NCBI GenBank assembly: GCA_951406725.2
Contig: OX597832.1
Coordinates: 28,520,001 to 28,584,000, forward strand
Direction of reading: 5' to 3'
DNA length: 64,000 nucleotides
From: Octopus vulgaris
Lineage: Eukaryota
The position numbers and the translations under genes were made by a program. Under the pieces are notes generated by a model. The model worked only from the letters and a program-made list of their open reading frames with translations, had not been told where the DNA came from and did not search any database. Shown in pieces: positions 38,601-41,600 of the stretch. Each line of letters opens with the position of its first letter. The first letter of the stretch is position 1.

Positions 38601-41600
38601 GGTAGAAGGAGACAAAAAAAAAAAAAAGAGAATGGGATATAAAGAAAGAGAGGAAAGTGAAACAAGAGAACGAGAGAGAGAGGGGGAAGAGAGGGAAGAG
38701 AGGGAGGGGGAGAGAGGGGGGAAACGGCGGCAAAAGAGAGATAGAGAATGGGAGGAAAAGAAAGGTAGATAGACAGACACACAATGAGTGCGAGAGAGAA
38801 GAGAGAGAGAGACAGTCAGACAGACGAAGAGAAGTGAGAGAGAGAAAGACGTAGAGAAGAAGGAGATAAAAAGAAGGCAAGGAAGATAAATTTAGACAAA
38901 GAGACGGAGAGAGAGAGATTGAGAGAGAGAGAGAGAGAGAGAGAGAGAGAGAGAGAGAGAGAGAGAGAGAGAAATATAGACACAATTCGTTAGACAGTAA
39001 TTATAGTAAAAGAATAGTTAGACAGTAGCTAAATAATAAATTAGACAGGGTAATAAATTAGACATGTAATATATTAGACAGGTAAAAAAGGGGGTGTTGT
39101 TCTTTTGAGTTACTGAAATTATTATTGAAGATTTTCAAAGAAAGGGGCGAAATGATTTAAAGAAATTAAGAATCAATCCCTCAAATTTAAATTTACATGT
39201 TTAGGAGACAGTCTGATCTTTTTTGTAGGTAAGGAAACAACTACAGACATGTTTCGACCTAGTTAGACCTCATCAGTATAGTATAATATTATGAAACCGG
39301 CTTGATCAGTTAAACATTTTTAATCAGAAAAAGAGTTATGAAATAATTATTGATCAGCATAATTTGCTTAATTAAAAATAATTATCTCGGTTAGACAGGT
39401 TTTGTTTCAGTTAATAAAACAGACGATAGCCATGAGTTGAACATCTGCTTGACAGTAATTAGTCAATGGTTAATTATAACTAGACGATACTACGAAATTA
39501 GTTAAATCTTATAACAGTAGCTGACCAGTAATTATACATCATTTAATAATTAACCACTAGTTAACTTAAATTTGTCAGTAGTTAGAGAACAGTTAGTATG
39601 GTATTAGCTTCTAGTTAACTAGTTGTTACTCGTGATTTTTAAACAGTAGTTAGACAATAGACAATAAATAATAGCCAAAAGACAGTAGACGGATGCGAGT
39701 TAGACAGTAGATAGATGTGAGTTAAATAGTTGTTAGCTGAAAGATGGACAATACTATTGCTGGCTGCCACCCGCTTTCGCTGATCAGAGCAGATAACTAA
39801 CACCAATCCTGATGACCACTACTCACTAGTAAATAACTAACACCAGCCTAGATGATCCTTACTGACAAAATAACTAACACCACTCGGCGTGACCATCACT
39901 GACCAAAATATGTTCTACTTACATTTCAGGTTAATTTTCGCTCCGAATTCATCGTCGTCAATTTTCATAAAGAACACAGCTTTATGAATGACAGGTTTGG
40001 GGGAAGTGACTTGAGTGATATCTGGGGAAGAGAAGGTAACAATGATGATCGTGATAATAATGATGATGATTATGATGATGATGTGGCGAAGATGGGTTGA
40101 CGACGACGATGATGGTGGTGCTGGTGCTGGTGATGATAACTGTGTTGGTGATACTAAGGATAATGGTGATAATTGTGAAGAAAGCTGTGTCCAATGGAAG
40201 TTATGAGAAACATCTTTTTACTATATATGTATATATATGTATATATATATATATATATATATATATATATATATATATATATATGTATATATATATATAT
40301 ATATATATATATATATATATATATATATACGTATATAATGTGTATATATATATATATATATATATATATATATATATATATCAGTTCGTCACTTCTAATC
40401 TATTACTAATCACAATCAAGGTAGTTTTGAAGACATTTAGAAATGTAATCTTATAGTAGACCACACCTGTGTATGTATATATATATATATATATATATAT
40501 ATACATATACATACGATATATATATATATATATATATATATATCGTCTGAAGGCGCATGGCTCAGTGGTTAGAGCGTCGAGCTTACGATCGTGAGGTTGT
40601 GAGCTCGAATCCCGGACCGGGCTGCGTGTTGTGTTCTTGAGCAAAGCACTTTATTTCACGTTGCTCCAGTTCACTCAGCTGTAGAAATGAGTTGCGACGT
40701 CACTGGTGCCAAGCTGTATCGACCTTTGTCTTTCCCTTGGATAACACTGGTGGCGTGGAGAGGGGAGGCTGGTATGCATGGGCGACTGCTGGTCTTCCAT
40801 AAACAACCTTGCCCGGACTTGTGTCTAGGAGGGTAACTTTCTAGGTGCAATCCCATGGTCATTCATGACCGAAGGGGGTCTTTACCCCTTATGTATATAT
40901 ATATATATATATATATATATATATATCGTATGTATATATATATATATATATATATATGTTTAACGCCTTGGCAAGAAAGAATATTGTAGACAGAACTGTT
41001 TCGACTTGACTGTGTTACATCAGTACAAACTAATTTCGAGATGCATTAACTATAAGTGTGTGTGTGTGTGCGGCGTGTGAGCATGTACACATGTATAAAT
41101 ATGCATCTGTGTGTGTGTGTGTATAAACACATATATCTGGTCTTTTTCTAATGGGTGTTCAATGTCTTGGCAAGGAAGAGTATTTGTAACAGAACAGTTT
41201 CGACTTAACTAAGTCACATCAGAACAAATTAAAGATACATTAACGATACGTTTGTATGTGTGTGTGTGTATGTGTGTGTATGTATGTATGTATGTATGTA
41301 TGTATGTATGTATGTATGTATGTATGTGTGTGTGTGTGTGTATGTATGTATGTATGAATGTATGCATGTATGTGTATCTATATTTATATATAGTTAAACG
41401 CTTAGACATACACACACATGCGCACACATTCGCAAACAGGAATATATTCTCACACGCGAATTGTCATCCGTGACGTTTTCTAAAAACATCTTACCTTTGA
41501 TTTCCACCCCATTATATTTCACCTTGACTCGATATGTGCCGGGTACCCGGGGTATAAAATCTGCCTTCACCACTTGTTTCTTCACGCCCTCTATGTCAGC

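Follow-up and report, generated by a model that had tools for sequence, protein, structure and literature searches.

A type I hammerhead motif in a filamin intron of Octopus vulgaris, probably a near-silent copy of a dispersed repeat

Host Gene and Intron

The 64-kb stretch of Octopus vulgaris DNA analyzed here (hereafter the window) carries exons of a filamin-A-like gene on its minus strand (Table 1). Five of seven minus-strand frames matched the filamin repeat family PF00630 at or above the cut-off, one scored below it, and one gave no match. One exon matches a 949-aa filamin-A-like protein of Octopus sinensis, which maps exon by exon onto the minus strand; the corresponding protein cluster comprises six sequences of three Octopus species. 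Exon 38493-38377 contains one diagnostic residue, at which the window matches the O. vulgaris entries.

Two contigs from sequencing runs (X11 record 2 and X12 record 10) cover exon 40021-39923 with zero differences, and their loose ends correspond to the end of exon 41668-41495 and to the start of exon 38493-38377. The contigs thus join the flanking exons, which means that the intron is removed and the 99-nt exon retained; they demonstrate the presence of splicing rather than its efficiency. Within this intron a hammerhead motif is located in sense orientation, approximately 680 nt after the 5' splice site and with approximately 750 nt of intron still ahead. The spliced contigs and the protein mapping hence bear out the earlier sequence-only reading, which had placed the motif in sense between exons 40021-39923 and 38493-38377 of a filamin gene.

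The 99-nt and 117-nt exons on either side are both of phase 1-1 and could be skipped in frame. The stretch 38980-40035 to which contigs were matched contains the 99-nt exon alone; it yielded no instance of skipping and would not be expected to reveal one. Both exons are contained in all three O. sinensis/vulgaris models; the 99-nt exon is found in two of the three O. bimaculoides models and the 117-nt exon in none of the three. The O. bimaculoides models P0004, P0006, and P0007 break in the same intron (window 39922-38377, minus strand): P0006 ends reading into the intron, P0004 starts at an ATG matching position ~39897, and P0004 and P0007 are devoid of the 117-nt exon. These breaks could result from an assembly gap near a TC repeat, or exon 38493-38377 may really be skipped. 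They were also considered as a sign of ribozyme cleavage, which was rejected because P0004 begins upstream of the motif and is spliced across it.

Some further observations concern the surroundings of the intron. The 99-nt exon separates the VEIK segment of a filamin repeat from its GTPF segment and looks like a domain insertion, with a protein sequence that is nearly unchanged across the three Octopus species. Just after the 5' splice site, positions 39788-39903 consist of three degenerate tandem copies of 37-40 nt, one unit of which is absent from a contig of run X2 (joint at 39830-39868) and represents a length polymorphism. Elsewhere in the window, inspection by eye revealed a frame at 1108-1871 (minus strand) that we take to be a PIF1-type helicase remnant (Helitron-like), a frame at 17742-17885 (minus strand) presumably resembling the 3' end of a LINE, and a frame at 20389-20565 (plus strand) that we assume to be a mariner-type transposase remnant. 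Scattered frames at 446-12917 (plus strand), also judged by eye, presumably represent exons of a gene for alanyl-tRNA synthetase that runs convergently to the filamin gene.

Table 1. Features of the hammerhead locus and its host intron (window coordinates).
Feature	Position	Strand	Basis or remark
Next exon upstream, filamin repeat PF00630	41495..41668	-	Spliced contigs connect it to 40021
Upstream exon, 99 nt, phase 1-1	39923..40021	-	Covers residues ~263-296 of the filamin-A-like protein (949 aa)
Host intron, 1429 nt, GT-AG	38494..39922	-	Spliced contigs X11 record 2, X12 record 10
Repeat-derived fragment, ~150 nt, hammerhead at 5' end plus ~100 nt downstream	39136..39285	-	Contig pile-ups; boundaries approximate
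Type I hammerhead motif, 43 nt, canonical core	39240..39282	-	Descriptor scan, RF00163 alignment, shuffles
Possible weak outer helix I, UUAU bulge	39236..39290	-	39290-39287 with 39239-39236; drawn by eye, putative
Helix I 5' strand ACUAUA	39277..39282	-	Sequence, descriptor
Core box CUGAUGA (C3-A9)	39270..39276	-	Sequence, descriptor
Helix II GGUCU/AGGUC	39256..39269	-	4-nt loop AACU, or 6-nt loop in Rfam register
Core box GAAA (G12-A15.1)	39252..39255	-	Sequence, descriptor
Palindrome ACAUGU in place of helix III	39247..39252	-	Second copy needed for a 6-bp helix
Predicted scissile bond, after C17 (39246) of GUC	39245..39246	-	Core numbering
Helix I 3' strand UGUAGU	39240..39245	-	Sequence, descriptor
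Downstream exon, 117 nt, phase 1-1	38377..38493	-	Loose ends of spliced contigs, protein mapping

The Hammerhead Motif

A descriptor scan of both strands of the 64 kb returned minus-strand positions 39282-39240 as the sole full type I match. The stems, loop, palindrome, and GUC triplet described earlier were all recovered there, with the cut site at 39246/39245. The core, likewise claimed to be canonical throughout, proved to be so: CUGANGA, GAAA, the UH cleavage-site dinucleotide, and the pairs G10.1-C11.1 and A15.1-U16.1 are all present. Helix I is open and comprises 6 bp including one U-G, and helix II is closed, with 5 bp when G-U pairs are counted. The earlier description of the motif as intact therefore holds for the core and not for the helices, as stem II is weak and helix III is unstable in one molecule.

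The motif is genuine and exceeds chance. A relaxed version of the descriptor found no match in 1500 block-wise dinucleotide shuffles of the window, and an analytic estimate gave an expectation of about 3.5e-6 type I motifs per window. The Rfam model RF00163 (Hammerhead_1) aligns to 39240-39282 over the full model length with 22.1 bits (E = 0.01 for the 701 nt searched). No match in the window reached the gathering level, which is 34 bits for this model, and a standard Rfam scan consequently misses the motif. No type III or later-site alternative was seen by eye in the flanks of the motif.

Other candidates were discarded. The combination of CUGANGA and GAAA occurs 12 times in the window, but helices accompany it only at 39282-39240; two occurrences near 32419-32482 did not pass the helix test. 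For a spacing of 4-30 nt the 12 occurrences on both strands of the 64 kb compare with 2.5 expected from whole-window shuffles, an excess that may reflect decayed copies or uneven composition. Other GAAACAUGU sites on the minus strand (33413 and 14138) have no core upstream, and matches to snoRNA and miRNA models near the motif were weak and far below the cut-offs.

Predicted Fold and Stability

Helix II is built from the pairs G-C, G-U, U-G, C-G, and possibly U-A, of which only three are Watson-Crick pairs. The tandem G-U/U-G adjoins the core, and the hairpin is predicted at +1.5 kcal/mol. In a single molecule, helix III can consist of 1 bp with a 4-nt loop or of 2 bp with a 2-nt loop; it is thus predicted to be unable to form stably within one molecule. 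The active monomer fold is predicted at +4.3 kcal/mol, its pairing probabilities were 0.00 in three wider sequence contexts, and the 76-nt region folds no better than shuffled sequences (z = 0.21), with a minimum-energy structure that is not the hammerhead fold.

Two copies would behave differently in the same calculations. The self-duplex of ACAUGU between two copies has 6 bp and a predicted energy of -6.0 kcal/mol, and a strand-swapped dimer is predicted at -8.0 kcal/mol, with an alternative two-strand minimum lying lower at -14.6 kcal/mol. From these models, a single hammerhead copy is predicted to need a second copy in order to cut. Since folding energies ignore tertiary contacts, Mg2+, and proteins, they predict low activity and do not prove it.

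These predictions bear directly on the possibility that the motif is a repeat-derived copy which cleaves modestly as a single molecule, assisted by proteins or by a contact between loops 1 and 2, and which has no selected role, the cut intron being tolerated or still spliced. The fully canonical core agrees with this, as does the weak outer helix I that can be drawn by eye and whose U-A-U bulge (UUAU in Table 1) lies where canonical type I motifs have loop 1. Furthermore, most invertebrate retrozyme hammerheads cleave efficiently as single motifs according to PMC7229834, which counts against assuming silence from family membership alone. However, helix III has 1 bp, the energies of helix II and of the whole fold are positive, and PMC7229834 links low monomer activity to a short helix III. 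We regard modest cleavage by the single copy as unlikely.

A Dispersed Repeat Family

Contigs from 4 of the 24 runs listed were matched to positions 38980-40035 at 80% likeness; among these, X2 (organism A) and X19 (organism F) are DNA runs. At least 22 of 26 pieces in X2 and at least 20 of 23 in X19 fit only partly. The summed depth over 39232-39267, which is not to be read as copy number, was 120 in X2 and 77 in X19, compared to 7.7 and 11.5, respectively, in unique intron. In both runs, contigs pile up at 39229-39285 and 39136-39221, and the pieces among those listed differ by 5-9 letters in 40-48.

The loose ends of these contigs cluster at a few positions. At 39276 they were found in at least six contigs of X2, at least three of X19, and at least one of X11; at 39277 in at least three of X2; and at 39285 in at least four of X19. 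On the other side, at least three contigs of X2 and at least one of X11 have loose ends at 39237, and at least 2 + 2 + 2 do so at 39244-39248. Altogether, at least nine contigs of X2, at least seven of X19, and at least one of X11 end at 39276-39285 and continue into unrelated flanks. Several stop at the first C of CUGAUGA and then carry a different helix I strand, as relatives that differ in helix I should do. The segment 39136-39221 is matched by other contigs, and loose ends on the downstream side share, by eye, short words with 39197-39222.

In the DNA contigs of the two organisms, other loci match the motif together with about 100 nt downstream at 80-90% identity. A 32/40 match demands more than a shared hammerhead core and is expected by chance about 0.005 times in such a run. 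The intron upstream of 39290 is unique apart from simple repeats. Together with the pile-ups and the loose ends, this delimits a repeat-derived piece at approximately 39285-39136, and the occurrence of similar motif and downstream sequences within unrelated flanks at other loci identifies the motif as a copy of a dispersed hammerhead-bearing repeat. This repeat is likely of the retrozyme/Penelope type, judging by its resemblance to known elements.

A chance arrangement in an AT-rich intron would be compatible with the score below the Rfam gathering level and with a minimum-energy structure other than the hammerhead. The absence of matches in the shuffled windows and the minute analytic expectation contradict it, however, as do the homologous copies elsewhere that end at the motif boundaries, and its probability is practically negligible.

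At the locus itself the repeat stands alone. Within the 64-kb window, neither a second copy of the motif or homology to its flanks (blastn, descriptor) nor a tandem unit was detected, and no parts of a parent element (pseudo-LTR, RT gene, or target-site duplication) were found at the locus. No RT-like frame was recognized by eye among the 23 frames of at least 30 aa that overlap the intron, which are exonic, of low complexity, or short.

A 180-nt contig of X11 (record 1), a run guessed to be RNA, matches 39237-39276 as a related hammerhead that departs from the window at five of 40 nt and has another helix I strand. It hints that a family member is transcribed, or it may stem from DNA carry-over.

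The Orthologous Intron in a Relative

A single contig of organism F spans the whole stretch 38980-40035; it shows 61 substitutions and 60 gap letters, corresponding to a divergence of about 6%. The insertion site is therefore common to the window and to this relative. Among the 40 of 72 substitution rows listed, each with a 100% share in X19, none falls within 39152-39296, and the alignment permits an insertion at 39281 to be placed immediately beyond the 43-nt motif. Taken at face value, these 40 of 72 rows would leave a 145-nt unchanged run with p of about 0.005 under uniform rates.

Several findings affect how this run is to be read. Both gaps among the substitution rows listed coincide with the contig pile-up regions. 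The indel table suggests a ranking by depth, which would make the substitution gap real; in the word-share test, on the other hand, a shared-word count of 5/106 favors by about 25 to 1 that the pile-ups hold changes beyond the rows listed. With 40 of 72 rows listed, an uncertain ranking, and a disagreeing word-share test, 39152-39296 is not taken to be an unchanged block. For the 43 nt of the motif alone, the shared-word count is nearly uninformative (about 2 to 1 against no change), and zero changes have a probability of 0.08 under neutrality. Of neutral copies diverged by 6-10%, 21-40% would be expected to keep the 15-nt core intact. X2 (organism A) and X19 (organism F) share a letter that differs from the window at 9 of the 40 places listed within 38980-40035, so that the window carries private alleles or assembly errors at these nine places.

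The orthologous intron is also the starting point for a functional explanation, namely that the motif is a domesticated intronic ribozyme, selected in octopods, which cuts a share of the nascent filamin transcripts and thereby tunes their output or the use of the two frame-symmetric exons. Cutting would be slow and proceed alone via tertiary contacts, or it would occur in a dimer with another transcript or with RNA of the repeat family. The sense orientation of the motif would suit such a role, as would its location some 680 nt past the 5' splice site, with a phase 1-1 exon on either side, the 6%-diverged intron of organism F with no substitution in the motif among the 40 of 72 rows, the O. 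bimaculoides models that break in the intron (two of them without the 117-nt exon), and precedents in PMC6155905 and PMC6765202. Yet the apparent conservation comes from 40 of 72 rows whose gaps coincide with the pile-ups, the word count favors further changes there, and zero changes in 43 nt would not be exceptional anyway. Moreover, the family is multi-copy, the fold is weak, and a cut would not explain the model P0004, which has its start upstream of the motif and is spliced across it. Domestication thus appears highly doubtful.

A Near-Silent Relic as the Probable Explanation

The motif is best explained as one copy of a dispersed repeat, a solo retrozyme- or Penelope-derived relic in a filamin intron that probably cleaves little or not at all; we assign this reading a probability of roughly three in four. 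A hammerhead-bearing non-LTR retrozyme or Penelope-derived element would have inserted into the filamin intron. Published work on this architecture suggests that, in the parent element, the ACAUGU palindromes of tandem copies would pair into a 6-bp helix III and the multimeric RNA would be cut after GUC. In the filamin intron, with one copy, a weak helix II, and no neighbor, a cut would need two transcripts to meet, and splicing of the 1.4-kb intron would likely be finished before any such rare event. Given that the 64 kb contain no partner and that some 750 nt of the intron are still to be transcribed after the motif, splicing likely wins.

The sequence-only reading had proposed that the hammerhead, if active, cuts the nascent transcript in competition with splicing. 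This proposal finds no support, given an architecture that is reported to perform poorly as a monomer (PMC4209133, PMC6765202), the missing partner, the unstable predicted fold, and the membership in a dispersed repeat.

Sense copies in introns may be selected against, by analogy to Xenopus, where 42-44% of the retrozyme copies overlap introns although they are depleted there, according to 10.64898/2026.07.22.740005. If such selection exists, a long-lived sense copy is mildly notable.

No octopus hammerhead family is described in the literature searched, and the supplements of PMC7229834 and PMC4209133 may list one. Evidence for a hammerhead-bearing repeat family in octopus thus represents a modest gain. 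The most likely reading of the intronic copy itself matters little, since animal genomes hold thousands of such motifs. If the motif were conserved and active, it would offer a testable invertebrate case of an intron-domesticated ribozyme, an invertebrate counterpart of the intronic ribozymes of RECK and CPEB3 that would limit filamin output or steer the use of its exons. For the amniote hammerheads, intronic domestication has been proposed without definitive proof (PMC6765202).

Comparison with Known Hammerhead Systems

Canonical metazoan type I hammerheads have a helix I of 6 bp, a helix II of 4 bp, and a helix III of 1-2 bp with a palindromic loop, and their unstable helix III impedes cleavage as monomers (PMC4209133); motifs with a palindromic short helix III are likewise poor as monomers (PMC6765202). 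Canonical motifs reside in tandem retrozyme repeats, including those of molluscs, with about 5000 such motifs in a mussel and more than 6000 in a coral (PMC7229834), and motifs of the Penelope type are mostly scattered single copies (PMC4209133). Retrozymes have been derived from Penelope pseudo-LTRs, and many occur as solo monomers (10.64898/2026.07.22.740005). Penelope-like families are annotated in O. vulgaris (PMC13282606).

The octopus motif shares with the hammerheads of non-LTR retrozymes the 6-bp helix I, a helix II of 4-5 bp, the lack of an extra base before G10.1, the vestigial palindromic helix III, the GUC triplet, a low G + C content, and the existence of many dispersed copies. 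It differs from them by its single-copy locus, with no tandem unit of 150-450 bp within the 64 kb, and by a helix II weakened by the tandem G-U, with a score below the RF00163 gathering level. The locus is thus not a retrozyme array, and the family may be one.

The minimal hammerheads of Penelope pseudo-LTRs resemble the octopus motif in a helix III palindrome that implies cleavage as a dimer, in occurring as scattered single copies, and, by analogy, in an expected low activity. In contrast to the Penelope minimal consensus, as given in PMC4209133, the octopus motif has neither the extra nucleotide between A9 and G10.1 nor a long helix II, and unlike in Penelope elements, no RT or GIY-YIG frame was seen by eye beside it among the intron frames. 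Strictly speaking, these features set it apart from the Penelope minimal hammerheads; it may be a solo pseudo-LTR fragment.

A scan of metagenomes yielded eight loci, none of which was similar to the octopus locus beyond the motif or contained an RT-like frame as judged by eye. Two of them (L005 and L008) have a helix I of 7-8 bp and the same palindrome, which demonstrates a shared architecture only. Hammerhead-like sequences with the ACAUGU palindrome were located at L005:1826-1857, L008:384-420, and L007:1906-1937 in unrelated, eukaryotic-looking metagenome contigs; L005 and L007 also gave sub-threshold matches to the Rfam type III model. The predicted monomer energies were -7.5 kcal/mol for L005, which has the same architecture, +2.1 kcal/mol for L007, and +3.6 kcal/mol for L008. 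L005 further has a short bulge before a 4-bp extension, resembling the possible outer helix I at 39236..39290. Two loci from a viral scan were both devoid of helix I and not relevant.

The amniote type I hammerheads of RECK, CTCL, and DTNB and the HDV-like ribozyme of CPEB3 are regarded as domesticated intronic ribozymes (PMC6155905, PMC6765202, PMC10274809). The octopus motif is comparable to this group in its sense orientation, intronic location, type I topology, and probable retroelement ancestry. The ribozymes of this group, however, exist in few copies and are conserved over very long times, whereas the octopus motif belongs to a multi-copy family, is at best putatively conserved even at a divergence of 6%, and has a monomer fold predicted to be unstable. 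By its core and topology, the motif in the filamin intron is to be classified as a type I hammerhead of the dimer-dependent animal kind.
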